A stretch of DNA of 64,000 bases, taken from IMG/VR virus record IMGVR_UViG_2529293038_000017, positions 23,342 to 87,341 of that record; one strand, given 5' to 3'. The position numbers and the translations under genes were made by a program. This DNA comes from a virus (Duplodnaviria > Heunggongvirae > Uroviricota > Caudoviricetes). Under the pieces are notes generated by a model, which worked only from the letters and a program-made list of their open reading frames with translations, had not been told where the DNA came from and did not search any database. Shown here piece after piece: positions 2,703 to 27,084 of this stretch (the stretch's first letter is position 1; each line of letters opens with the position of its first letter).

Positions 2703-3028
2703 TTCCCGCCTCCCTTTTTCACCAAACTTGTAAGAACATTCAGAATGCTATCGATATTCACTCGTTTCATCCCTGAAATCACCTCATGACCGTTATTGCT
2801 GGCTATCGTTACCATTAAGTACGTAATTGATAACTCCCAGCCCTCGTGTTGCCCCAATAGGTACGCCACCGCGCCAGCTGTCACTGCAACAAAGATCTCC
2901 GTAACCAATCCCAACAAATTGCCAGACTGGCGACCGTCTCGGACATCCATCAGGAACGTGCCTATCCCACCAATTACTGAAAGCAGGAGCGCAATAGCAA
3001 CTGGAGCTAATTCCTGTGTGTCAAGCAC
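2699..3028 (-). CDS. holin-like membrane protein (LydA-like)
   Basis: 109 aa with hydrophobic helices (AIALLLSVIGGIGTFL, IFVAVTAGAVAYLLG) and charged C-terminus KKGGGK. Confidence 0.5.
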   Translation of the reverse strand: MLDTQELAPVAIALLLSVIGGIGTFLMDVRDGRQSGNLLGLVTEIFVAVTAGAVAYLLGQHEGWELSITYLMVTIASNNGHEVISGMKRVNIDSILNVLTSLVKKGGGK

Positions 3029-3102
3029 AAGTTCCCTCCTACGTTGTCAGGAGGTAATGGTATGCAAAGTAACTTCTCAACCGGTTATGTTGCATAAGAG
3101 AC

Positions 3103-3366
3103 TTACCTATTCAACCGACTTTTGGAACCTTCAATAATAAGCCTGCTATTGGCGCTGAAAATAAGAACCATGCAGCTCTGAAGGCTTTCATTCATATCCT
3201 TATATTCCGCGAGATACATGCCAATAAAGCCAGCAAGTACGGCGGAAATACATTCGGCCAGCAATTTCTTGCATGAAGACTCGTAACGGTTTTCACATAG
3301 CCCACTCAAATACGAATACACCCCACCAAGAAGGGATAACATCACGATATGTACATAAAATGTCAT
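3103..3366 (-). CDS. small membrane protein (87 aa)
   Basis: ORF in track; two hydrophobic segments; first gene of the minus-strand lysis/dar operon. Confidence 0.4.
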   Translation of the reverse strand: MTFYVHIVMLSLLGGVYSYLSGLCENRYESSCKKLLAECISAVLAGFIGMYLAEYKDMNESLQSCMVLIFSANSRLIIEGSKSRLNR

Positions 3367-3493
3367 TTTTTACCTATACAACAGTAAGTTGAACAACATC
3401 TGAGAACGGTATGCACTTTGTGATTTCCACACACACTGGTTTTGTTAATTAAAACCTGTAGCTTGCAATAAATAACGATAGTGGGCAGAAAAT

Positions 3494-3670
3494 ATGCTAA
3501 TAGGCTATGTACGCATATAGACAAATGAACAAAACACAGCTATGCAGTGAAAAGCACTTGAAAGCGCAGGATGTGAGCTAATTTTTGCGAATAAGGCGAG
3601 CAGCAAAAAGGCTGGGCACCCTGGGTTAAAAAAGGTTCTGCGTATGCTTTCCAGAGGTGATACCCTAGTC
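3494..3670 (+). pseudogene. remnant of a second serine DNA invertase (Cin/Gin/Hin family) N-terminus with in-frame stops
   Basis: Reads MLIGYVRI*TNEQNTAMQ*KALESAGCELIFANKASSKKAGHPGLKKVLRMLSRGDTLV, aligning to the Cin N-terminus in this window (MQIGYIRVSTNDQNT...GDTLVVWKLDRLGRS); the catalytic Ser codon is TAG; homology ends at 3670. Confidence 0.65.
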
Positions 3671-3801
3671 TCGGGCTAGGGACAACATTTCGAGGACAGT
3701 TTTCATTAGCGGTCAGCAGGCGCTAGATACATCGAATTGATGTGCCGCGCGATAAATGTACCTATTCTATCAAGATAAATTACACCGACGCGGCATTAGA
3801 A

Positions 3802-4374
3802 TTACAGCTCAGATTGAGTTTGGCGCTTCTCTACAGGATGATAACGATAAATCGTCGATACACCGATATCGTAAATAATTGCCAACTGTTTCCTGCTGTA
3901 GCCATTTTCGATCAACCTCGCTATTTGCTCATGTTGTTCTTTTGTCAACTTCGGGCGACGTCCGCCAATGCGTCCCTGTTCGCGTGCAGCTGCCAGTCCG
4001 GCCAGTGTTCTCTCAACAATTAATTCACGTTCCATTTCTGCTAAAGCCCCCATGACGTGAAAAAAGAAACGCCCCATGGGTGTTGATGTGTCAATACTGT
4101 CTGTCAGACTACGGAAATTAACACCTTTTTCCCGCAACTCCTCTATAAGCGTGATAAGGTGTTTCATACTTCTGCCAAGCCTATCCAGCTTCCAGACAAC
4201 CAGCGTATCTCCTTCTGATAACGTTCTGAGCAGCTTTTTCAAGCCTGGTCTGGCTGACTTTGTTCCGCTTATTTTATCTTCAAAAATCAGTTCACATCCT
4301 GCGCAGTTCAGTGCATTTCTTTGTAAATCTGTGTTTTGGTCATTTGTTGACACACGAATGTAGCCAATTTGCAT
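3802..4374 (-). CDS. cin: Cin-type serine DNA invertase
   Basis: IGYIRVSTNDQ catalytic motif, LDRLGRS, C-terminal HTH; start set to ATG 4374 (AAGAGG 9 nt upstream) rather than track TTG at 4383; adjacent to invertible fibre segment. Confidence 0.9.
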   Translation of the reverse strand: MQIGYIRVSTNDQNTDLQRNALNCAGCELIFEDKISGTKSARPGLKKLLRTLSEGDTLVVWKLDRLGRSMKHLITLIEELREKGVNFRSLTDSIDTSTPMGRFFFHVMGALAEMERELIVERTLAGLAAAREQGRIGGRRPKLTKEQHEQIARLIENGYSRKQLAIIYDIGVSTIYRYHPVEKRQTQSEL

Positions 4375-4427
4375 GAAAAACAACCTCTTTGTTTAGTTAA
4401 AAATACATCGTTGGTATAGGTAGGGAT

Positions 4428-4453
4428 TAAGACTAAAACGTTGGTTTGGGAGA
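4428..4453. other. cix-like crossover site (left boundary of invertible segment)
   Basis: TAAGACTAAAACGTTGGTTTGGGAGAA; right half is reverse complement of left half of the site at 6010..6035; hix/gix-like AAACC-NN-GGTTT core. Confidence 0.5.
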
Positions 4454-4943
4454 AGGCTCTGCATTACCTGTTGGTGTCCCTGTTCCGTGGCCTTCAGCCA
4501 CTCCGCCAACAGGCTGGCTGAAATGCAACGGTGCGGCTTTTTCTGCTGAAGAATACCCGGAACTGGCAAAGGCTTACCCGACAAATAAATTGCCTGATTT
4601 ACGTGGTGAGTTCATTCGTGGCTGGGATGACGGGCGCGGGATTGATCCAGGTCGCTCTATTTTAAGCGAGCAAGGATATGCAACGGAGGATCATGCTCAC
4701 GGATTACCGTCAAAATCAACCGTAGCAACTGACAGCTCAATTAATTTCTACTTTGACGAGGCATGGGCTACTAGTGGTAATACGGGAGTTATCAGATGGG
4801 GGAACACAAGCGATGCAGGATTGCCAGCCCCTAATTATGGAACTTTTAAAACATATAAACAGTCCGTAGCTAATTTAGGTACTGCTGGCTTAGAAACCCG
4901 CCCTCGTAATATTGCATTTAATTATATTGTGAGGGCGGATTAA
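4446..4943 (+). CDS. silent alternative tail-fibre C-terminal cassette (Sv'-like); expressed only after inversion fuses it to the S constant part
   Basis: N-terminal ~65 aa (GEGSALPVGVPVPWPSATPPTGWLKCNGAAFS...DLRGEFIRGWDDGRG) and C-terminal ETRPRNIAFNYIVRA are shared with the S C-terminus on the opposite strand; middle differs. Confidence 0.6.
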   Translation: MGEGSALPVGVPVPWPSATPPTGWLKCNGAAFSAEEYPELAKAYPTNKLPDLRGEFIRGWDDGRGIDPGRSILSEQGYATEDHAHGLPSKSTVATDSSINFYFDEAWATSGNTGVIRWGNTSDAGLPAPNYGTFKTYKQSVANLGTAGLETRPRNIAFNYIVRAD

Positions 4944-4948
4944 TTATA

Positions 4949-5560
4949 TCAACTGGCTGTAGAAAGTTGTTTTTCAGGCCAGTTGAGATCTGGTGCCGTG
5001 GTTAAATCCATCGCGTTCAGCTCGTCTATATAATCTAGCACGGAGTTAAGCTGCGTGGTTTCTGCCTGCGTCAACTTCCGTCCAGCCCGTAATTTCAACT
5101 GAATCAGACTAATGGAATCCATCGCAGTATCAATCAATGACTGACGTTTTGTTTCTGCTGCCTCTACAGCTGCACTATGTTGAGCCTCAGTATCAACCAC
5201 CCATTTCTCTCCATCCCATTTGTCGTATGGTGTTAGCGGGGCGATAGTGGTTGTATTTTCCGGATAGTCACCCAACACCGTGATTTCTTCGGGATTCCCT
5301 GTGTCAATGCTATAGACAGTTTCGCCACGATGATCTGGCACATACTCCCATGAACTTAAATCCTCTGAACGGAGAATCGCATAACCTGCTTTATGTGAGC
5401 CTGGAGCATCCAAACAAGAATGTGCCGGAATACCAACGCCAACAGCAAGATATTCAGTTGATGCAGAAATATATTCCCGATTACCACCATCATAGTTATA
5501 AACGATAATGTTTCCTGCCTGTATGGCTATAAGTTCGCTATTTAATATCGCATTATCCAT
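4949..5560 (-). CDS. tail fibre assembly chaperone (U/Tfa-like)
   Basis: 203 aa; start overlaps S stop (TAATG); Tfa-type C-terminus (VLDYIDELNAMD); lies inside the invertible segment. Confidence 0.75.
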   Translation of the reverse strand: MDNAILNSELIAIQAGNIIVYNYDGGNREYISASTEYLAVGVGIPAHSCLDAPGSHKAGYAILRSEDLSSWEYVPDHRGETVYSIDTGNPEEITVLGDYPENTTTIAPLTPYDKWDGEKWVVDTEAQHSAAVEAAETKRQSLIDTAMDSISLIQLKLRAGRKLTQAETTQLNSVLDYIDELNAMDLTTAPDLNWPEKQLSTAS

Positions 5561-7239
5561 TATGCTGCTCTCACAATATAATTGAAGGCAATGTTACGTG
5601 GGCGGGTTTCATTCCCCCCAGATAACTCCGTTCTGTATTGACTGGTAAATTTACCATTAATCGCTCCTTCTTGGACGGCGTTATCTGTCGACAACAGGCT
5701 ATCCCCCCCTCTGTCATTTGGCACCAATACCGTGTTATCCCACGCGTCCCATGACCGAATATTATGATAATGACTTCCTGTTAACCACCCCTGTATGCTT
5801 AAGATGACCCTTCCCGCATCCACACCTCGCCCATCATCCCAACCACGGATAAACTCACCGCGTAAATCAGGTAATTTTAACGTTGGGTAAACCTTTGCCA
5901 GATTTGGGTACTTTTCAGAAGAAAATGCTGCTCCGTTACATTTCAGCCACCCCGTTGGTGGTGTGGCTGAGGGCCATGGAACAGGTACACCAACGGGCAG
6001 CGCCGAGCCTTCCCCTAAACCAAGGTAATTAAGAACGCTCTGAATACTGGGCTTACTAAGAATTGCACGTCCAACACTTGTCAGTGCAGTTAACGCGGCA
6101 CGATCAACCCCTGTGAAATAAGGGAGTTTATCTGCTGCGGTAGCTAGTGCCGCTAGAGCAGTGAGCGTAGCGTCTGCCGCTTGCTTTCCATTAGCCAAAT
6201 CATATGCAGCCTTGACAGCTTTCGGTGTAGCGGCCAGCACTTCAGACGTGCTGTTAGTGGCACTACTGAGCTGAGTGATGCCTTTCGCTGTCAATGAAGC
6301 TGTTGGCACACCAGTAATCTGATTCCAGGGATGTGTATGACTGGATGGTGCCTTTCCGGCTGCTAGATCGTATGCAGCTTTAACCGCTTTTGGCGTTGCA
6401 GCTAATGTTTCAGAAGTGCTGTTGGTGTCGCTACTGAGCTGAACTATCCCTTTTTGTGTCGTGGTTGCATCCTGGGCTGTATACTTCCCGTTAGCCAGGT
6501 CATATGCAGCCTTGACAGCTTTCGGTGTGGCGGCCAGCACTTCAGACGTGCTGTTAGTGGCACTACTGAGCTGAACTAATCCCTTTTGCGTTGTGCTTGC
6601 ATCCTGCGCCGTATACTTGCTTTTCGCCAGATCGTAGGCTTTTTTAACTGCCAGCGAACTCGCAGCAACATCACTTCTGGTACTGGTTACAGAGTCTGAA
6701 ATATCAATGCCGATCGTGCGGTTGATACGCTCGGATGTATCAATCATCTCTTGAGTAATGGTAGATACGCCAGCAGGGATATTCACCGTACAAACCAGCA
6801 GTTCCCCATCACCTAACTGATATGAATCGGTATAGGTTCTGGCAACAAATTCAGCTGCATGAATATGTGACGCGGTATTCACCTGATAGGTATCTTCTCC
6901 AAGAAGGTATCTTCCCTTCAGCACAATTGCATATTTCTTGCCTGCGTTAAGTGCAAGAGAGATATCCTTACGATGCTGAATAGTTACCTGGTAGAATTCA
7001 CCAATATCCACTGACGCCGCGCCAGCGGTTTTATCTCCATCCACTGAGGTGATTAACAGGTTCATCCCACCGCCAGGCTTAGGCAAGAAACCAGCATAAA
7101 ATCCCGGGTCAACAATTCCCCTGAATTTTCGGTTTAGAGCGGCTGACAGATATGGTTCGTGGTATTGCACATCAGCCACCAGAGCCAACGACTCGGGTGA
7201 TGGGTAAGTAACCGATGTAACAACTGTAACGTCATTCAT
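5560..7239 (-). CDS. tail fibre protein S (constant part plus currently expressed variable part)
   Basis: Repeated fibre motifs (KAVKAAYDLA..KYTAQDA.TTQKG.VQLSS.TNSTSE, 3-4 copies), C-terminal NETRPRNIAFNYIVRA; start set to ATG 7239 (AAGGA upstream, just after R stop) rather than 7326. Confidence 0.8.
   Translation of the reverse strand: MNDVTVVTSVTYPSPESLALVADVQYHEPYLSAALNRKFRGIVDPGFYAGFLPKPGGGMNLLITSVDGDKTAGAASVDIGEFYQVTIQHRKDISLALNAGKKYAIVLKGRYLLGEDTYQVNTASHIHAAEFVARTYTDSYQLGDGELLVCTVNIPAGVSTITQEMIDTSERINRTIGIDISDSVTSTRSDVAASSLAVKKAYDLAKSKYTAQDASTTQKGLVQLSSATNSTSEVLAATPKAVKAAYDLANGKYTAQDATTTQKGIVQLSSDTNSTSETLAATPKAVKAAYDLAAGKAPSSHTHPWNQITGVPTASLTAKGITQLSSATNSTSEVLAATPKAVKAAYDLANGKQAADATLTALAALATAADKLPYFTGVDRAALTALTSVGRAILSKPSIQSVLNYLGLGEGSALPVGVPVPWPSATPPTGWLKCNGAAFSSEKYPNLAKVYPTLKLPDLRGEFIRGWDDGRGVDAGRVILSIQGWLTGSHYHNIRSWDAWDNTVLVPNDRGGDSLLSTDNAVQEGAINGKFTSQYRTELSGGNETRPRNIAFNYIVRAA
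6010..6035. other. cix-like crossover site (right boundary, inside S)
   Basis: TTCCCCTAAACCAAGGTAATTAAGAA; inverted relative to 4428..4453; ~200 bp of ~80% identical inverted sequence flank both sites inward. Confidence 0.5.
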
Positions 7240-7250
7240 CAAGCATATCC

Positions 7251-7685
7251 TTATGCTGTAGTCGAGTTTATGGCCATAACTGCGGTATATGTTTTGCCCA
7301 CATACAGCGAGTCTTCCTGGACACAAATAATGGCGATTGGCTTATTCTCGTTATCCAGAACAACCAGAGTGTTGAATGGGTAGTTTTTCCCTTCCTGCAA
7401 CTGACTTTGATCAAGGTCCATTCGGACAGTAATTATCCCGCCTGAGTAGGTTGGGACGAGGTTGATGGTGCAAAATTGACTGGTCAGTTCTGCCAGATCG
7501 AAAGCCTTTGGCAGTTCTCCAATCTCATAAGTGCCATCTCCTTTCTTAGTAACCAGTGAACTGGTACCGAAAACGGCCTTGCTGATTAAAAATCGAGAGC
7601 CTTTGTTAATGGACGATTCAGCGCGCCGCTGATAGTAATAGTCCAACAACTGACTCTTATAGAGGTTTGTTGAGACGTCAGACAT
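7251..7685 (-). CDS. tail fibre/baseplate-associated protein (R-like, 144 aa)
   Basis: ORF immediately upstream of S in the same operon. Confidence 0.5.
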   Translation of the reverse strand: MSDVSTNLYKSQLLDYYYQRRAESSINKGSRFLISKAVFGTSSLVTKKGDGTYEIGELPKAFDLAELTSQFCTINLVPTYSGGIITVRMDLDQSQLQEGKNYPFNTLVVLDNENKPIAIICVQEDSLYVGKTYTAVMAINSTTA

Positions 7686-7763
7686 GATTTTCCCTAATCA
7701 ATGTTGTGAAGCCTCATTGTAAGATAAGTAACTTGTCACCCCGCCCTGCGGACGGGGTGATTG

Positions 7764-8603
7764 TCACGCATCGCTATCCAACAGCAAATCATCTGCGCGG
7801 GTGCGATCAAACGTAGGCGTTGCTTTCACAATAGTGCCGCCCGGCGTTGCAGTGATCGGGGCGTTAATCGACGTAACTTCAGTAAGCGAAGTTGTATCCG
7901 AAGTTTCAAACCAGCAGAATGCTTTTTCGGTATCAGAAATCTCATTCAAAGTGATCATGTCGGCCTGTTCATTTACAACAACCGACAAATAGAGCGTAAG
8001 CCCATCAAACACTATATGCAGTGGCAGTAGAGGCTTTACGAACTGATTAAACTTTCTGAGAATTTCTTCTGTAATTGCGGACTGATCTATCGTTCCAGTA
8101 ATACCCATTGTCCGGGCCAGGTCGTTTATGGGAATACTGATCATTCCTCTGGAAGTCAGAAACATCTCGCCGAATGTGCCGCCGGTGGTTTCCAGTGTGC
8201 TTTCTGGAATCAGGACCGTGCCATAGGGATGACGTTCAAAGTCCACCGGAGCATATATTGGATCCCATAAAACCGATATACCGTTAAATTCGCGATAAAT
8301 TGTCTGGTTTATAGGGCGTTCAGTACCCTTAAAATGGATCTCATCAAACCGCTGTTGTAACAACATCGGAACGGAAGATGAATTCGACGTTCTGATAGTA
8401 AAAAACTGGCCAAGTTCATTTGTCCTAGTCTCCAGATCCTCCTTGCTCATGGAGAAAATAGACTTCCGGTTGGTAATTCGCTCCAACCATGGGTCAACAA
8501 AGGTGTCCATCATTGACTGAACCAAATCAGCCAATGATTTATAAAGTAATGACTTTTGCTTAGCTGATGTAAGCCGGTTATTAAACCAGGAACGCTGCAT
8601 CAC
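7764..8603 (-). CDS. baseplate/tail structural protein (279 aa)
   Basis: ORF in tail operon; ATGA overlap with upstream gene. Confidence 0.45.
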   Translation of the reverse strand: MMQRSWFNNRLTSAKQKSLLYKSLADLVQSMMDTFVDPWLERITNRKSIFSMSKEDLETRTNELGQFFTIRTSNSSSVPMLLQQRFDEIHFKGTERPINQTIYREFNGISVLWDPIYAPVDFERHPYGTVLIPESTLETTGGTFGEMFLTSRGMISIPINDLARTMGITGTIDQSAITEEILRKFNQFVKPLLPLHIVFDGLTLYLSVVVNEQADMITLNEISDTEKAFCWFETSDTTSLTEVTSINAPITATPGGTIVKATPTFDRTRADDLLLDSDA

Positions 8604-10033
8604 TCCTCCTCATACGAAATATTAAAGGTGGAGTTTTCTGTATCCAGATAAACGAAATCGTAAAAGCCGTTGGACTCATTCCACTCGACAAATTCCAGAT
8701 AAAAGTCGCGGAAATAACCCAGCGTTTCGATAAATGCCCAAACGTCTTTTTTCTTGATTAGGATGTACTTGCCGACACGGTTCGGATCAAAGAAAGTTGA
8801 GTCACGCCCAAATTTTGTTTCCAGTGCCGACTTCAGCTCATCAGTCACGTTCTCAATGGTCAGGCTTGCCGATATCCGCCCAGTGATAGTGATCTTAAAG
8901 GGGAGTTTTCTGACCTCTTTATACGAGAATTTCTTGTTCAACTCATTCGGCACCTTCTTAAAGGCAGCCAGGATCACTTCTTCAAGCTCTGACTGGCTTT
9001 TGTTTGGATGCCATCCTGAAATAAATATCTTATTGATATTCCGAACATTATAAGCACCATCTAATTTCTCTTGCTGGCCTTCGCCCCATGCCTTTACCCA
9101 GGACAGTCCCGGGATGTTACGCACCAAAAAATACGTATAGTCCCCGCCCCATACGACCTGATCATCATAGGCAAGGTAATATTGTGCACGATTACGTGTG
9201 ATCTCCGTTGTTTCGGCATCGGTACCTGCGGTTATGGGTGTCGTTGTCTTAACTGAAATCAAATTAGCTAAATTAGCCGCAGAATCGACAGGCGTCAGGT
9301 TTTGGCCAGCAACCAGGGTTATATCTCCGTTGGTGCACCATACCTTAAGTGTAATGGTCGAGCCTTCTGGCGGTATTTGCCCAATTAGCCCATCACCGAA
9401 TCGAACCCCCAACTGCTCGGATGGCTTATAAAACTCAACGTAGACCTGGCTTTTACTACCGGCTAACCGGAACATAGTGCTGGAAGACCACTGCGTGGTC
9501 TTACCATCGGTCGTCACGAATACTTCCAGCTTATAGCAGACAGCAGTGAGAGCCTTTGATAACACGACTTCCAGAAATTCTTTGGCTGCCGTAACGGTAT
9601 ATGTCACCTCCTGGATTTCCAACTGTGCCACTTCTACCGTACCGGTGCCGTCAACCAACCTGCATACATCCATAGTCATGTAAGGGTACTGGTCGTCAGA
9701 TATTAAAGGCATATTTTTGGGGATTACCGCTGGGGCATCTTCACTTGTGGCGGTGATCTCAATCATCCCCGATGACGGTGTTGGCTTGGTACCAACGTAA
9801 CTATTCGTTTCTGCCGCTGCCAGGATAGAGGAACGCCGCGTCGCGGTCGATATAAAGCCTTCAGCCAGCGCCGCATCGGCATACTGAAAGCACCTGTAGA
9901 CAATCTGGGTAATAAACAATGTCAGCATCGAGACAAATTGAGAGCCGACAAACTTCGACCAGAATGAATCTTTCTCGACAAGCTCTTCAAACTCTGCACG
10001 AATACTGTCTTTAGTCGGTGTTGTTTTACTCAT
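8600..10033 (-). CDS. baseplate wedge protein (J/gp6-like, 477 aa)
   Basis: Size and position between gp25-like gene and fibre genes; overlapping start/stop. Confidence 0.45.
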   Translation of the reverse strand: MSKTTPTKDSIRAEFEELVEKDSFWSKFVGSQFVSMLTLFITQIVYRCFQYADAALAEGFISTATRRSSILAAAETNSYVGTKPTPSSGMIEITATSEDAPAVIPKNMPLISDDQYPYMTMDVCRLVDGTGTVEVAQLEIQEVTYTVTAAKEFLEVVLSKALTAVCYKLEVFVTTDGKTTQWSSSTMFRLAGSKSQVYVEFYKPSEQLGVRFGDGLIGQIPPEGSTITLKVWCTNGDITLVAGQNLTPVDSAANLANLISVKTTTPITAGTDAETTEITRNRAQYYLAYDDQVVWGGDYTYFLVRNIPGLSWVKAWGEGQQEKLDGAYNVRNINKIFISGWHPNKSQSELEEVILAAFKKVPNELNKKFSYKEVRKLPFKITITGRISASLTIENVTDELKSALETKFGRDSTFFDPNRVGKYILIKKKDVWAFIETLGYFRDFYLEFVEWNESNGFYDFVYLDTENSTFNISYEEE

Positions 10034-10389
10034 AGCACCACGTCCTGTGTGATAGTTATATCCCTGATACGAATGGATATTTTCAACTTATCAAAAGCAT
10101 CTCCCTCGGCTACTGACAAGCCAGAAATCGGTATGTCAGGTAAATCTACCGTCAGTTTTTGCAACAGCATTGCCTCAACCGCAATTTGAACATGCGACAA
10201 GTTGGTCGGTTCGTGTTTAAACTGCGGTAAAACATTGCCCCATGACGGATCTCCGTATACCTCACCCTGATAAGTGTTTAGCCACTCATATAAACGAGCG
10301 CCCCAGGCCTCCTCCTGGGACTCATACGTTTTTACGCCGGATAACTCCAGCGTCAGCAAAGGATCAATTTCGTTATTGTTGGCCATCAA
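10030..10389 (-). CDS. small baseplate protein (GPW/gp25-like, 119 aa)
   Basis: Size and position directly downstream of sit; overlapping stop/start. Confidence 0.4.
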   Translation of the reverse strand: MMANNNEIDPLLTLELSGVKTYESQEEAWGARLYEWLNTYQGEVYGDPSWGNVLPQFKHEPTNLSHVQIAVEAMLLQKLTVDLPDIPISGLSVAEGDAFDKLKISIRIRDITITQDVVL

Positions 10390-13376
10390 TCAACTCTCGC
10401 GTAGTCATTCATCAACGGATCATCAATTGACAGTGGTACCGTGCGCATAACGCCCGGCTGAGGCGTGCTGACCTTTACGACAGTTCCCTGGCCTTTCGCC
10501 GAGTCTTTGGTGTGCTCTTCAATCCTGGCAAGCAATGAGGTCATCTGCGCAAACAGCCGCTTCGTTTCACCATCAAGTGAAACGGTATTATCAGCCAACT
10601 GCATTGTCGGCTTGGCACCGGAACCGCCAAGGTCACTAATAACCTGCCCGTCTATCTGCATACGACCGGTTGGTTGCTGCAAATCGTTGGCGGCAGTCGT
10701 CACCTGGGACGTGGAGGCTGGTTCAGGCGCATTATTTTTCCGCATCCCCGGCGAGTTGCGGAGTTTATCGAATAGTCCATCAATCCCCATTTGTGCGCCG
10801 AGATGGTCAAAGTAACTTGAGTTGTTGGCCACCGGACGCGCCTCTTCAACTGGCATCGGAGTATCAACATACACATTGCCAGCTGCTGTTGCGGTCCCCT
10901 TCTCTCGTGCACGTTCTTCTAGCGTTCCCTGAACGACTTCCCGACGCATCCCCCGGCCATTCATGAATTTGTTGACCAGATCGTTAACGCCAACAGCATT
11001 GCCGATTTTGTCGACCAGACCGCCTTTCTCAAACGGGCTATCACCAGGGGTAAACGCCAGGCCAGTATACTGATCGATAACAGCGTTATCAGGCAGTGGT
11101 CCCCTCACTCCATATTGCGCCCCACCCTGTGCTCCTGCTCCAGGTGTATAGATTTCACCACCTAAATAGCGAGCACGATGAGTATTGACCTTGATCGCGT
11201 ACTCACGGTTTTCTTTCGATAAGTCACCGGTGCCTTTTTTCCACTTATTAATAGTGCCAAACCCAGCATTATATGCAGTGATGGCCTCGTTTAAGTCTCC
11301 ATTGGCTTGCTTAAGATACTTGCTCATGAGAAGAGCCGCAGCTTCTGCCGATTTCACAGGATCAAACGATTCACCTTCAGCTAAGCCAGTCTCTTCACGA
11401 GCAATCCCCGTGAACTGAAACATCCCCAGAGCACCGGTTTGGGATTTTGCATACGGATTACCACCAGATTCAGTTGCAGCAATCGCGTAAAGAGTGCCTT
11501 CTGGAAGACCGTATTTATTCTCTAGTTCGGCAAAATACGGAGCCAACTTATCGAGATTTGCCTTACCTTCAGCGCCAAGACTTCCGACTTTTACATCTAA
11601 GTTGCCATTGTTGTAAGTATCCGCAGCTTTCTGAATGTCATTCCTGGTGCCAGTGGTATTAAGCGACGATGATGACGAGCTATTTTGACCAATAGCTTTA
11701 TCAATTTTCTGCAACGCGCTATTGCCCGTTTCTACGGCATTTGCATTGATAATCTGATTGGCAGTTTGTTTAACTGTTTTATTGCTATCTTTCGCTGTGT
11801 CCAGTGCCGCATTTATCACGCGGGTAGCAATATTACTCTGTTTGGCATCGGATTCAGTTTTAGAATCAGACGTCTCCTGGTGGCTATTAACCGGAGCTTT
11901 TAACTCCGGAGTGATTTCTTTCGCATTAGCCTCGCCGATCGGATTGGGTATTTTTGATACAATCATTGCCGCAGGGGTATTTTTAACGGCATCAACCGCT
12001 GCATCTAATGCTTTACCAGGTAAATTTTTAACCCCATCCCAAATATTACCAGCCGCCTCTTTAATGTGTTTCCCTGGGTTCTTAATGAAATCAATTGCAC
12101 TATCAATTGCATCACTGAAAACCTGTTTCAGGTTATCAACAGTAAAGAAGTCTTTGATGGCATCCAGCTTTTCAAGCAGCTTATTAGATGTATCGCTAAA
12201 CCATGCTGAAACAGCATCACCAATCTTTGCTGTGTAATCTTCGAACTTGGTAGAAATGGTGTCGCCAAGGTTAGAAATATATGTTTCTAAGTTGGTAATC
12301 CCACTATCAATGGCCTGGGCAATACTTTCCGTCGAAAATGATTGCAACATATTGCCGATATCCTCAAATCCAAGTGATTTGAGAACCTCACCAATGGCGC
12401 TGCTAATACCAGATACCAGTCCCCCCATATCAAGAACATTGGCTAACGTATAAGCGGCTTTTTGCTGGAATGATGGCTCTTGTCCTGATTTAAGCCCAAA
12501 CGCTCGACGTTGCGCTTCTGTATCATTCCAACCGGTTACCGCATCATAAATACCTCCAGCCACTGTGCCGACTAAGGGAATTGCGCGTAACGCCCCTTTA
12601 CCAACTGCCTTTAATCCAAATTTACCTGCTGCCCGGGCAGCCAAATCTCCACCTTCATGGGCGATAGTCTTCTTGCCACCACCGCGTAGCATTCCTACAA
12701 GTTTCTTTGCCCCCAGAGCGCCAAAAGCGAGTGCTCCAGCTTTTTTCAGCATGCCACGCCCCATTAACAACGACGCGACGCCACCGGCCCCCTTCCCTAA
12801 CAGGCTAAATAGTTTGGACAGCAAGCCGCCCTTCTTTTTCCCGGTGTTTTTGGCTATCTGATCAAGGGCGCTGAGAATCTTGTCATTGCCCTCTTTAATT
12901 TCGCTGGTCTGCTCCTGAAGTTCCTGAACCGTCCGTTTTTGGGTGTTAACCTGAACGACATCGGCACTATTTTGCGATTTACGCCTAAAAAAACCTTTTC
13001 TACGGCTGTTATCGTCATTGCCACGAATCACATCGGCAATAGACTTTCTGGCGCCATTAAGCGATCCACCAACTTCTTTTGATATCCCGCCAAGCTCCTT
13101 CCCTGCTGCCCACAATGGACCAGCAACGGCATAACCTAACGCATCGACGGCACGAGTCTCTGAAGGGTTACCTATGCCTTCAGCTACTTTTGACAGTTTT
13201 TTTAATAAACCTGATTCAGCATTTAGACGCTCATCATCCTCTTTGCGCCTGGCCTTTTCAGCACGTTCAGCACGGGCATCTTCCGCTGCGGCCTTACTCC
13301 CTGACTTTCCAATAAAACGACCACGCGCATCGCGTTGGTTTTGGCTTTTTTGCGCACCGCCTTTTTGATCGAACAT
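10386..13376 (-). CDS. sit: Sit-like tape-measure/injection protein with lytic transglycosylase domain
   Basis: 996-aa ORF; SLT motifs (ATESGGNPYAKSQTGALGMFQF, AYNAGFG); Gly/Lys-rich N-region; no RBS before ATG 13376 and frame open upstream to the A6 run at 13445..13450. Confidence 0.8.
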   Translation of the reverse strand: MFDQKGGAQKSQNQRDARGRFIGKSGSKAAAEDARAERAEKARRKEDDERLNAESGLLKKLSKVAEGIGNPSETRAVDALGYAVAGPLWAAGKELGGISKEVGGSLNGARKSIADVIRGNDDNSRRKGFFRRKSQNSADVVQVNTQKRTVQELQEQTSEIKEGNDKILSALDQIAKNTGKKKGGLLSKLFSLLGKGAGGVASLLMGRGMLKKAGALAFGALGAKKLVGMLRGGGKKTIAHEGGDLAARAAGKFGLKAVGKGALRAIPLVGTVAGGIYDAVTGWNDTEAQRRAFGLKSGQEPSFQQKAAYTLANVLDMGGLVSGISSAIGEVLKSLGFEDIGNMLQSFSTESIAQAIDSGITNLETYISNLGDTISTKFEDYTAKIGDAVSAWFSDTSNKLLEKLDAIKDFFTVDNLKQVFSDAIDSAIDFIKNPGKHIKEAAGNIWDGVKNLPGKALDAAVDAVKNTPAAMIVSKIPNPIGEANAKEITPELKAPVNSHQETSDSKTESDAKQSNIATRVINAALDTAKDSNKTVKQTANQIINANAVETGNSALQKIDKAIGQNSSSSSSLNTTGTRNDIQKAADTYNNGNLDVKVGSLGAEGKANLDKLAPYFAELENKYGLPEGTLYAIAATESGGNPYAKSQTGALGMFQFTGIAREETGLAEGESFDPVKSAEAAALLMSKYLKQANGDLNEAITAYNAGFGTINKWKKGTGDLSKENREYAIKVNTHRARYLGGEIYTPGAGAQGGAQYGVRGPLPDNAVIDQYTGLAFTPGDSPFEKGGLVDKIGNAVGVNDLVNKFMNGRGMRREVVQGTLEERAREKGTATAAGNVYVDTPMPVEEARPVANNSSYFDHLGAQMGIDGLFDKLRNSPGMRKNNAPEPASTSQVTTAANDLQQPTGRMQIDGQVISDLGGSGAKPTMQLADNTVSLDGETKRLFAQMTSLLARIEEHTKDSAKGQGTVVKVSTPQPGVMRTVPLSIDDPLMNDYARVD

Positions 13377-22881: not shown

Positions 22882-23697
22882 TTAGCCAAGGCGCTTACGG
22901 CGCAGTTTCATTGACTTTTTGCGGGCAAGTTTTGCCGCGCCGGTCTGGGCTTTTCGACGCGCTTTTTTCAGCGCCGATTTTTGAGCCGCAGTCAGACGTT
23001 TTTTACGCAGGCGTTTACGGATGAGTTTGATCTCACCGTTACGAACAACCTTCTTAAATGCTTCAGTCAGCATTTCATCAGAAGTGCCAGCAACAACAAA
23101 CGCCGCTTCCAGTTCGTCGCGGTCGTCGCTATCTAAACCAGCGATAGAGGCACCAACATCAGCAGCAGCGTCGTCGTCTTCATCGTCAGCCAGTGCTTCG
23201 ATCAGGTCATCATCTACACCGCATGCTGCGAGGAAGTCAGCAACATTTGCCCATGCTTCGTTATAGGCATCGTCCTGTTCTTCTGTAACTTCGGAGTCGT
23301 CGTCATCAGAGATACCAGCGATAGCCTGAACGAAACCATCAAGGGAGTCGAAAGTCAGATCACCGCTATCAGCCCAGGAGAAAACGGCGTCGGCCGCATC
23401 ACTCAACGCATTCTGCATAGCACTTCGATTTGCAGCTTCCAGAATCATCTGGTGCGCCTGTTCGACGGTCCATTCTTTACCGTCTTTCCCTTCCAGGATT
23501 TGCTCTGGAGCCGGGGCAGATGGAACGTTATCGTTAGTCTGTGCCGCCGGTTCCGGATTATTATTAATAACCGGATCTGTTGGCGGTTCGGCGCTTGCTC
23601 GGGCAGACTCCATCAGCTGCACAGGATCAGAGTTCAAAGCGAAACGGGACAGTCCATTCCCCAAAAATGCCCCGGATTGAAAAAAGTTTTTGCTCAT
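22882..23697 (-). CDS. acidic protein with basic C-terminal tail (271 aa)
   Basis: Asp/Glu-rich core, KKRLTAAQKSALKKARRKAQ tail; between sheath-like and downstream structural genes. Confidence 0.45.
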   Translation of the reverse strand: MSKNFFQSGAFLGNGLSRFALNSDPVQLMESARASAEPPTDPVINNNPEPAAQTNDNVPSAPAPEQILEGKDGKEWTVEQAHQMILEAANRSAMQNALSDAADAVFSWADSGDLTFDSLDGFVQAIAGISDDDDSEVTEEQDDAYNEAWANVADFLAACGVDDDLIEALADDEDDDAAADVGASIAGLDSDDRDELEAAFVVAGTSDEMLTEAFKKVVRNGEIKLIRKRLRKKRLTAAQKSALKKARRKAQTGAAKLARKKSMKLRRKRLG

Positions 23698-25356: not shown

Positions 25357-27084
25357 TTACTCAGAGTCACCAGCATCAATCGTGTTACCGGTCAGGAAGT
25401 TAATTCCGCCATTTTTTGCCATAGTCAGAGTTACACGGGTGAAGTAGTCAGCACCGTTGCGTGGATGCATATCGTTGATAGCCGAACCCCACAGAGTGGT
25501 TCGGTTGACTAGTGCCGGGGTGGTCGGATGCTGGAATGGGACAGCCGGGACTGCATCACCAGTTACGAAGCCCGCTTTGCCCGGATTTTCATCACGGACG
25601 TAGCACAGCACATCCATTGGGCTGAACTGGATACCGTCGGCGGTCAGGTTCGTACAAATACCTTCTGGTACTTCGAACACTTTGACGTTGCCGAACAGAG
25701 TGCCAATGTAGTGGACGTATGGGGTCTGGATGTAATCTTCTGCTGGCAGGAAGAAATCCTTCGGCAATTGTTTGAAGAAAGATGCCGCATCAGCACCGGC
25801 ATACATCCCCATCGCACCAGAAGATTTAACACGCTCAATAATACCGCGATATACCGTCTGGAATTTGCCTCGAATGATGGTTGCCCACACATCAAAGGTC
25901 TGGTTAGCTGGTAGTGCAATATCAAAGGAGTCGGTCGCAAGAGTTCGCCAAATCATGATACGAAGACGAAGCATATCTTGCTCATGGGACAGGTATTCCT
26001 TCAGGGTGCGGAACTGTAGGGAGCCAAGATCCAGACCAAATTCACGCTGTGCTTCATACGCCGCCTGTACCGTGTGCTCAGCCGCGATGACGAACTGGTT
26101 TGGGAACAGGGTGTAACTCTTCATTTCGTGGTTGATAAGTGGGATCAGCTCAGGAGCTGCTTCTATATTGATCTCCGCCTCAATGGCGATCTCAGTGCCT
26201 TTATCCGGCGCTTTGGAGAACGACAGGGCAATCTGACCAACGTTGTAATTCAAAGAGCAAGTAACAGTGATTTGTTCGCCTGCTTTGTTATTGAATGTGT
26301 GAAGCAGAGTACCGGAGCCGTTATCAACAACAGACTTAATACGGTTAACGTAGATGTTTGTGCGACCTTTGCGAATCGGGACATTCTGACCTTCGACATC
26401 TTCCATCTTGAAGGTTGCAGTTTTGCTGGTGCCGTCGGAGCTTGCAACCAGCACATAGCGGCGGCGCAACTGGCTGTACACGCCAACGGATTGCATGTCC
26501 AGAACATCACCAATAGCATAGGAGCCAAAAGAAGAACCCGCTACGTTAAAGATTTCATAGATTTCGGACTTGTCACGCGTAACCGGAATGAATGTACACG
26601 CATCAGCGGTAGCTGCCCCCAACTGAACAGGCAGGATCATCGCCAAGAATAAAGGCAGACGCATAACCCCGTCAGAAACACTCATCATCTCTGCCGCGAC
26701 TGATTCCAGCATCGCTTTATTGGTGGCGTCCATGCTATTGCGGGTGGACTCAATCAGGCAGTTTTCCAGCGTCTGATGGCAGGAGGCCAGAATTTCCGGA
26801 CGTGGCATAGATTTATGTGTTGCGGCGTAGTCAGCCAGTGCACTTGCCCACGCTGTAGCGATTTGAGCGGTGGCATTATCAGAGATACCCGCAAAAATTG
26901 GGTCTTTACGTGCAGCTTCAAGGATAGATGCGGCACGCGCGGCATCATCTTTAATGAATTGGTTATCAGTACCGAACTGCGCAGTGCTTGCCCAGCCAAG
27001 CACAGCTTTAGAGCGTTTTGCGATATCTGCAATACGATTCTGGTATTCGCGTAAGTTACTCAATTTACTCTTCCTTAAACACAA
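25357..27084 (-). CDS. major capsid protein candidate with N-terminal helical (delta-like) region
   Basis: 575-codon frame next to parB; helical N-terminal ~130 aa then beta-rich body; track start is TTG; alternative TTG at 27063 after AAGGAAG. Confidence 0.45.
   Translation of the reverse strand: MCLRKSKLSNLREYQNRIADIAKRSKAVLGWASTAQFGTDNQFIKDDAARAASILEAARKDPIFAGISDNATAQIATAWASALADYAATHKSMPRPEILASCHQTLENCLIESTRNSMDATNKAMLESVAAEMMSVSDGVMRLPLFLAMILPVQLGAATADACTFIPVTRDKSEIYEIFNVAGSSFGSYAIGDVLDMQSVGVYSQLRRRYVLVASSDGTSKTATFKMEDVEGQNVPIRKGRTNIYVNRIKSVVDNGSGTLLHTFNNKAGEQITVTCSLNYNVGQIALSFSKAPDKGTEIAIEAEINIEAAPELIPLINHEMKSYTLFPNQFVIAAEHTVQAAYEAQREFGLDLGSLQFRTLKEYLSHEQDMLRLRIMIWRTLATDSFDIALPANQTFDVWATIIRGKFQTVYRGIIERVKSSGAMGMYAGADAASFFKQLPKDFFLPAEDYIQTPYVHYIGTLFGNVKVFEVPEGICTNLTADGIQFSPMDVLCYVRDENPGKAGFVTGDAVPAVPFQHPTTPALVNRTTLWGSAINDMHPRNGADYFTRVTLTMAKNGGINFLTGNTIDAGDSE

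Follow-up and report, generated by a model that had tools for sequence, protein, structure and literature searches.

A probable two-cassette Min-type tail-fibre switch with a single predicted assembly gene on a P1-like phage-plasmid

Invertible tail-fibre switches, the p15B Min system included, are familiar from work of the 1980s and 1990s, and as an individual case the locus described here adds little to them. The Cin-driven C-segment of P1 and the Gin-driven G-segment of Mu share with it the basic layout of a constant 5' part of the fibre gene, Sc, joined to an invertible 3' end, the genes R, S and tfa being read from the late promoter LPs. The Min region of p15B, the work of Sandmeier, Iida and Arber in 1991/1992, reportedly comprises six crossover sites and cassettes and occurs in many isomers, according to the 1991 abstract. 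The locus in question, an invertible tail-fibre region with one tail-fibre assembly (chaperone) gene, tfa, lies in a 64-kb stretch of viral DNA, positions 23,342 to 87,341 of IMG/VR record IMGVR_UViG_2529293038_000017 (the window), whose tail-fibre switch region was checked for repeats, open reading frames (ORFs), domains and crossover sites. The window represents a P1-like phage-plasmid with hundreds of matching E. coli plasmids, which are about 95 kb in size and non-mobilizable. Judged by its sequence, the locus is a reduced, two-site, two-cassette member of the p15B Min multiple-inversion family, the link to p15B running through its proxy, plasmid pMCR_SCKP-LL83. The reading we favour, and hold to be rather probable, is that of a functional minimal switch of this family, dependent on a Fis enhancer and derived by deletion, whose Tfa would be generic to a class of fibre tips and would act in trans in the alternative orientation.

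The locus is very probably a working binary tail-fibre switch, as predicted from its sites and reading frames. The invertible segment of 1.6 kb carries the expressed fibre end and tfa on its minus strand and a silent end on its plus strand, and it is adjoined by an intact serine invertase gene. At the invertase-proximal boundary lies the left crossover site (mixL/cixL, 4429-4454, core TT at 4441-4442), 26 bp reading AAGACTAAAACG-TT-GGTTTGGGAGAA, and at the Sc-side boundary the right crossover site (mixR/cixR, 6010-6035, core AA at 6022-6023, TT on the minus strand), whose 26 bp read TTCTTAATTACC-TT-GGTTTAGGGGAA in reverse complement. Both stand in inverted orientation with an identical TT core when read as an inverted pair, and they are the only two crossover sites in 3000-8000, which makes the switch a binary one. 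Their outer half-sites are of two boundary types, AAGACTAAAACG on the invertase side and TTCTTAATTACC on the Sc side; the former also bounds the arrays of L002, L003, L005, L008, L010 and L086 (loci of the survey described below), and the outer half-site TTCTTrATTACC is found at the Sc junction in all related arrays. An earlier note on this DNA had proposed that the tail-fibre segment inverts and contains two variable ends but only one tfa, a proposal supported by the sites, the ORFs, the Collar domains and tblastn searches; its coordinates hold for the right site, while the left one had been placed 1 nucleotide off. The inverted sequence of about 200 bp and 80% identity that it had seen is a long inverted repeat, 4438-4667 against 5797-6026, with arms of 230 nucleotides that are 78% complementary, the sole long one in 3500-8000, and a second inverted repeat of 52 nucleotides spans the 3' ends of both cassettes. 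Inversion of 4443-6021 in silico produces an in-frame fibre gene, S', of 572 residues.

In the present orientation the expressed tail-fibre gene S (559 residues, 5560-7239, minus strand) is one continuous ORF in which Sc (408 residues, 6022-7239, minus strand) leads into cassette A, or Sv, the expressed 3' cassette of 153 codons (5560-6021, minus strand), whose Collar domain covers residues 417-464 of S. Cassette B, or Sv', the silent alternative of 166 codons (4443/4446-4943, plus strand), is likewise of the collar type (Collar domain, E=1e-15) and intact, and in other plasmids it is fused in frame to Sc. The common ending once claimed for both variable ends holds for the C-terminal motif ETRPRNIAFNYIVRA and fails for the residue preceding it, which is N in Sv and L in Sv'. 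The silent cassette, at 4446-4943 on the plus strand, has an in-frame TTG as its first codon, inside the crossover site, and in relatives RefSeq annotation treats it as a putative free-standing 'phage tail protein' gene. A search of solved structures matched Sv' only to T4 gp37/gp12-like collars; the T4 gp37 tip and short fibres of the gp12 type depend on chaperones.

The single tfa gene (203 residues, 4949-5560, minus strand) carries the features of the Caudo_TAP family, with the domain itself (PF02413, E=3e-30, residues 78-197) and a position directly 3' of the fibre gene, and it matches phrog_105, 'tail fiber assembly', with E=1e-92; its chaperone role is a prediction, and no relative in the PDB was detectable by sequence. 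Its ATG overlaps the stop codon of S (TAATG), and tfa is predicted to be translationally coupled to Sv. On the other side, its stop codon and the convergent one of the silent cassette are 5 nucleotides apart (4944-4948). Because no crossover site separates B from tfa, B is never co-transcribed with it; the suggestion that the alternative fibre would be made without a co-transcribed Tfa is borne out as gene order and is obligatory for B. The absence of a second chaperone gene, also claimed before, holds for the whole 64-kb window, in which tblastn with six Tfa queries gave 4952-5560 as the only match.

The recombinase expected to act on these sites is a Min-type serine DNA invertase of 190 residues (3802-4374, minus strand; Resolvase, PF00239, E=2e-51; HTH_7, PF02796, E=3e-15), with the catalytic and C-terminal helix-turn-helix domains that mark the small serine recombinases of the Din family (Hin/Gin/Cin/Pin/Min). 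The earlier label of Cin type, and with it the choice of the P1 C-segment as comparator, does not fit: the enzyme belongs to the Min/Pin-like class, is 74% identical to P1 Cin and is 100% identical to the invertases of p15B-like pMCR_SCKP-LL83 and of L002-L005. Its gene has its 5' end toward the invertible segment and reads away from it, co-directional with the S operon. Inside this 5' part lies a predicted homologue of the recombinational (Fis) enhancer (4285-4356, minus strand), as the first 110 nucleotides of min (1-110) align without gaps to nucleotides 1-110 of P1 cin, of which 19-90 are given as the enhancer in the P1 record. Next to the invertase gene is a truncated 5' remnant of a cin-like invertase gene, interrupted by in-frame stops (3494-3670, plus strand), which we take to be what the p15B papers, going by the 1991 abstract, name psi-win. 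The remnant is placed and oriented as P1 cin, has a mean identity of 86% to the P1 cin promoter and 5' region over the alignment and 63% identity over 59 residues to the Min query in tblastn, and is annotated likewise as a pseudogene in L004; it is a flanking hallmark of the p15B arrangement and has no part in the switch mechanism. The promoter that drives R, S and tfa is LPs, of the P1 late type (7716-7734, minus strand, AAGTTACTT-N4-TACAAT), which lies outside the invertible DNA and matches the annotated P1 LPs exactly in its -22 box and -10 element; LPdar (~3075) is also conserved exactly. In the mechanism envisaged, the Min-type invertase would recombine the inverted pair of 26-bp sites, which fall where S encodes LGLGEG, and inversion would exchange the 3' end Sv (A) for Sv' (B) behind Sc, transcribed from the fixed LPs.

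The family context comes from a survey of 79 IMG/VR loci encoding Tfa relatives and six plasmid loci (given here by L-numbers), in which invertase, collar starts, heads, Tfa and Sc were mapped. Min-type arrays account for 26 of these (L001-L005, L007-L027), and every one of the 26 has two to nine collar-type cassettes and one tfa module, duplicated in L020. Within them tfa always sits in one unit, A-tfa|B, made up of cassette A, tfa and then a convergent cassette abutting the tfa stop; the cassette A plus tfa unit was found in 21 surveyed loci. A single chaperone is the family norm, since all 26 arrays hold one such module, and the departure from the canonical two-chaperone layout that had been noticed at this locus is real when set against Mu and P1 but not peculiar to the locus. 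One tfa goes with arrays whose cassettes all belong to one structural class. The p15B-like plasmid pMCR_SCKP-LL83 (MF510496), with nine cassettes and one tfa, is very close to the window, with Tfa 99.5% identical and the A and B cassette heads 98% identical, and its inversion region has been reported as 99% identical to the p15B min region at 92% coverage (PMC5786510). Membership in the p15B Min family is assigned because psi-win lies beside the invertase gene, the cassettes are of the collar type and a near-identical A-tfa|B module is present in p15B-like plasmids. The only unusual trait of the window locus is its reduction to two cassettes: the whole query of invertase, module and Sc is covered by 17 complete-genome E. 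coli records, and pToe51-2 is the only one without an extra cassette. The two-cassette form would most simply be a deletion derivative of a longer array, in which either two directly oriented sites or two of the conserved collar 5' regions would have recombined; the boundary half-sites of the window fit what loss of the internal cassettes from an L008-like three-cassette array would leave behind, the direction of change being the one that we infer.

Three of the related loci show rearrangements or damage of their own. L020 (IMGVR_UViG_2541047915_000010) has the whole A-tfa unit duplicated in inverted orientation at ~4600-8100, giving two head-to-head tfa genes, and is the sole surveyed array with two copies. 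L004 (NZ_CP195333.1) has at 7579-10414 an invertase-A-tfa unit, after which come part of a second, convergent tfa and ISEc23, an insertion sequence of the IS66 family, as if a canonical segment with two chaperones had been disrupted there on a P1-like plasmid. In pToe51-2 (L002, 6861-9741) a frameshift interrupts the expressed A cassette about 35 codons in, and RefSeq splits S into two overlapping coding sequences, either through a sequencing error or through real inactivation of the fibre gene. Across L001-L027 the cassette 5' regions (4443-4634 and 5830-6021 in the window) are mosaic over their first ~190 nucleotides, which encode the collar; identical 5' variants occur with unrelated heads, and synonymous polymorphism (pS) is far higher there than in the heads of the same alleles. 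This mosaicism and high pS suggest frequent gene conversion or recombination among cassette 5' ends.

The two junctions expected after inversion were built in silico and complete E. coli genomes were searched with them. The Sc::B junction was matched as one colinear stretch in several plasmids, NZ_CP195222 among them (98.5% identity); there the expressed fibre gene and tfa converge, A and further cassettes lying beyond tfa, and L005, L012 and L086 are similar. The inverted state of the A-tfa|B module thus occurs in nature, and the earlier claim that tfa would come to lie antisense to the S transcript is confirmed by relatives found in just that state, in which Sc continues into the otherwise silent cassette and tfa reads antisense (L003, L005, L012, L086). 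Over all loci with a visible Sc, about eight have tfa co-oriented with S and about seven have it antisense. The compact form was not found in the inverted state in this search, every match to that state having extra cassettes or, in L004, the IS66 insertion.

The survey also bears on the kind of chaperone that Tfa might be. Where adjacent cassette heads are less than 30% identical to each other, Tfa identity averages 84% with a minimum of 73%, and its N-terminal 80 residues are equally conserved, at ~83% identity, across unrelated heads. A second survey of collar cassettes, seeded with cassette B, returned 45 that are directly followed by tfa, 34 followed by the next cassette of an array, 11 convergent to tfa and one otherwise placed. 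Outside arrays, tfa is directly 3' of the collar cassette in 45 of 46 cases, no fixed collar fibre without tfa turned up in this second survey, and in L056, L062 and L072 a co-oriented tfa follows a head that shares 79% identity with B. In P1, a CRISPR interference screen scored the Tfa-family gene U, the last gene of its transcript, as essential, which was not the case for the silent U' and Sv' (PMC10695390). Because Tfa is near-invariant beside unrelated heads and co-located with fixed collar cassettes, and because P1 U is essential, the evidence favours Tfa as a predicted class-generic chaperone used by all collar-type tips over a cassette-specific one.

The reading favoured here, then, is that the single Tfa would be generic to tail-collar tips and that one copy would suffice for arrays of two to nine cassettes, always within A-tfa|B; that this compact copy still inverts; that B needs Tfa; and that in the B state Tfa would be supplied in trans, independently of co-transcription from LPs. 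Two candidate routes suggest themselves: a weak internal promoter, or mixed orientations among replicating genomes, aided by late read-through into the co-directional invertase gene. Such read-through is possible because no intrinsic terminator is predicted on the relevant strand to separate the S operon from the invertase gene, in either state, and because that gene, downstream of the operon, is co-directional with it, unlike P1 cin. The puzzle of Tfa supply applies to the whole Min family and appears undiscussed in the literature searched, in which no discussion of the single tfa of Min arrays was found.

A number of observations weigh against this reading. Both copies found of the compact form, those of the window and pToe51-2, are in the A state, and in the B state tfa would be crossed by late transcription in the antisense direction. 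Checks for late promoters, sigma-70 promoters and a psi-win promoter found none able to express tfa in the inverted state: the P1 late-promoter box AAGTTACTT-N3-5-TAnnnT has no match with two or fewer mismatches in 4380-6100, and a sigma-70 consensus scan gave two weak matches against 7.6 expected in shuffled sequence. An internal CTGGCA-N16/17-TAAAAT/TAAATT motif was rejected as a tfa-specific promoter, being present in all cassettes with or without tfa and being constrained coding sequence, and the promoter homologous to that of P1 cin at psi-win (~3420-3455) has a -10 element of TAAAAC instead of TAAAAT, with T6 lost, and a spacer shorter by 1 nucleotide. The link to p15B is drawn through pMCR_SCKP-LL83 and not through the p15B sequence itself. 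Finally, the ratios of nonsynonymous to synonymous polymorphism (pN/pS) of the heads, at 0.19 for both cassette families convergent to tfa, 0.20 for cassette A with tfa downstream and 0.16-0.30 for solitary cassettes, are sums over pairs that are phylogenetically non-independent. On these values, cassettes that can never be transcribed together with tfa appear to be as well maintained as cassette A, which is.

With three mismatches allowed, two late-promoter matches are found in the module, a number at the chance level (~1.2 expected). As an outside rightward promoter, that at psi-win is unlikely to serve, having lost T6, having the shorter spacer and having a terminator-like hairpin at 4300-4315 in its path.

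The alternative that survives best, although we consider it unlikely, is that B and the other tfa-less cassettes fold without Tfa, which would serve only A or be an accessory protein (such as a tip-bound adhesin), general assembly being left to gpR or to host chaperones. It would explain how B can be intact and under purifying selection while never co-transcribed with tfa, and it accords with the lack of an independent tfa promoter in the checks above, with the translational coupling predicted between tfa and A specifically, and with gpR, which is constitutively co-transcribed and filed as a 'tail fiber assembly protein' in PHROGs. Against this stands the placing of Tfa, which directly follows the B-like head (79% identity) and no fewer than 12 further, unrelated collar heads wherever the cassette is fixed, in the 45 of 46 cases given above. 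The lack of co-variation between Tfa and the head would also be odd for an A-specific partner, and B resembles the T4 gp37/gp12 collar tips, which are chaperone-dependent, with P1 U essential as well. A chaperone-free B is thus less likely.

A second alternative holds that the inverted (B) state is a dead end: phage from a B lysogen would lack functional fibres, the plasmid prophage would keep flipping back, and B would be kept mainly for its second crossover site. Such an outcome could be expected from a tfa that is antisense to the only identified late promoter with no terminator to shield it, and the near-even split of natural isomers, about half with antisense tfa, is what would be seen if orientation were unselected in the lysogen. 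The state of the cassettes, however, makes this quite improbable. The variable head of B, which lies outside the crossover site, has the same pN/pS as the cassette expressed with tfa (0.19), and 92 of the 100 cassettes detected at crossover sites, representing 49 distinct heads, are intact ORFs of 143-178 codons with the conserved motif at their end. The growth of arrays to nine cassettes would, moreover, make little sense if half of the isomers were sterile.

A further proposal is that one generic Tfa serves every Min-type cassette, although in about half of the isomers, and in every case for B, its gene lies antisense to the sole late promoter identified; this would call for an undescribed supply route. 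In this proposal late read-through would boost the invertase during lytic growth and scramble orientation among the genome copies, so that every burst would have tfa-sense templates and release mixed fibre types; in this stronger form we regard it as decidedly doubtful. Least probable is that the compact copy is a frozen remnant, in which inversion would have become too rare to be of use once the other cassettes had been deleted. The form is indeed seen only in the A state, in the window and pToe51-2, and the expressed cassette of the latter reads as frameshifted. Against this, the compact copy has an intact invertase, identical to the enzymes of arrays that look active; it also has the predicted enhancer homologue, consensus crossover sites with matching TT cores at both ends, and an intact B.

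The remaining features of the operon belong to the P1-like backbone. Sc, with four Phage_fiber_2 repeats, and R are both 94-96% identical to their P1/P7 counterparts. Three 132-nucleotide tandem repeats in Sc (6184-6615, minus strand) encode Phage_fiber_2 repeats, and their number varies among otherwise near-identical plasmids, Sc having 408 residues in the window and being much longer in pToe51-2; megablast colinearity is broken because repeat number, and hence Sc length, differs. Gene R, the first of the tail-fibre operon (7251-7685, minus strand), matches P1 R and phrog_2032, 'tail fiber assembly protein' (E=1e-84), and its product has no match to a Pfam or NCBIfam family; unlike the phrog_2032 label, a 2026 paper describes R as attaching the fibres to the baseplate (PMC13172314). 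Elsewhere in the window, divergent matches to the P1 late promoter lie at 27053 (plus strand) and 27133 (minus strand), reading AAGTTACTC...TACTCT and AAGTGACTT...TAAAAT with one mismatch each in the -22 box, and are presumably further late promoters of the P1-like backbone.

The interest of the locus lies in the question that it shares with its family. Min-type switches keep one conserved Tfa beside unrelated receptor-binding heads, antisense in about half of the isomers, while their tfa-less cassettes are under purifying selection. Deciding between Tfa action in trans, dispensability and mixing of orientations would be of use in tail-fibre engineering, for instance where the tips of P1-based delivery particles are exchanged and a universal chaperone is to serve them all, and in predicting the host range of the numerous P1-like phage-plasmids with resistance genes. 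For this question nature offers no simpler substrate than the two-cassette version.

Set beside the described systems, the window has much in common with P1, including a predicted enhancer homologue, 26-bp crossover sites with a 2-bp core, and Sc, R and flanking genes that are 94-96% identical. The P1 C-segment, however, is 4.2 kb long and carries Sv-U and U'-Sv', one chaperone per end, where the window has a single tfa, and P1 cin reads into the segment, with cixL overlapping its 3' end, whereas the window invertase gene has the opposite orientation. The match of the window to P1 stops inside Sc, and the comparison with the P1 C-segment that had been proposed as a check goes no further. P1 U and U' have no tblastn match in the window, and neither its cassettes nor its Tfa are related to Sv and U of P1, for which reason derivation from a P1 C-segment that lost U' was rejected. 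For Mu, the Tfa/fibre complex of North et al. 2019 (Nat Microbiol; ref. 53 of PMC9881135) reportedly concerns a chaperone of the Caudo_TAP family whose gene comes right after the fibre gene, and its N-domain is said to be non-conserved and fibre-specific, in contrast to the ~83% conservation of the N-terminal 80 residues among relatives of the window Tfa. P2-like and other chromosomal E. coli prophages (e14 Pin type; L036, L060 and L074 among them) share with the window a Pin/Min-like invertase and a collar cassette whose stop codon overlaps, as here, the start of the tfa behind it, the Tfa being 77-81% identical to that of the window; they differ in having a two-chaperone layout, in which this unit faces a non-collar second cassette with its own distinct tfa' of 146-150 residues, whereas both window cassettes are of the collar type and share one Tfa. 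The nearest system is p15B Min, represented by pMCR_SCKP-LL83, which has the same invertase (100% identical) with psi-win adjoining and its gene diverging from the segment, collar cassettes of 143-170 residues joined to Sc at LGLGEG, the A-tfa|B module with one tfa, and a P1-like backbone with the LPs late promoter. It differs in its longer Sc and in the scale of the array, nine cassettes forming a shufflon-like array in the proxy and two sites with two cassettes forming a binary switch in the window.

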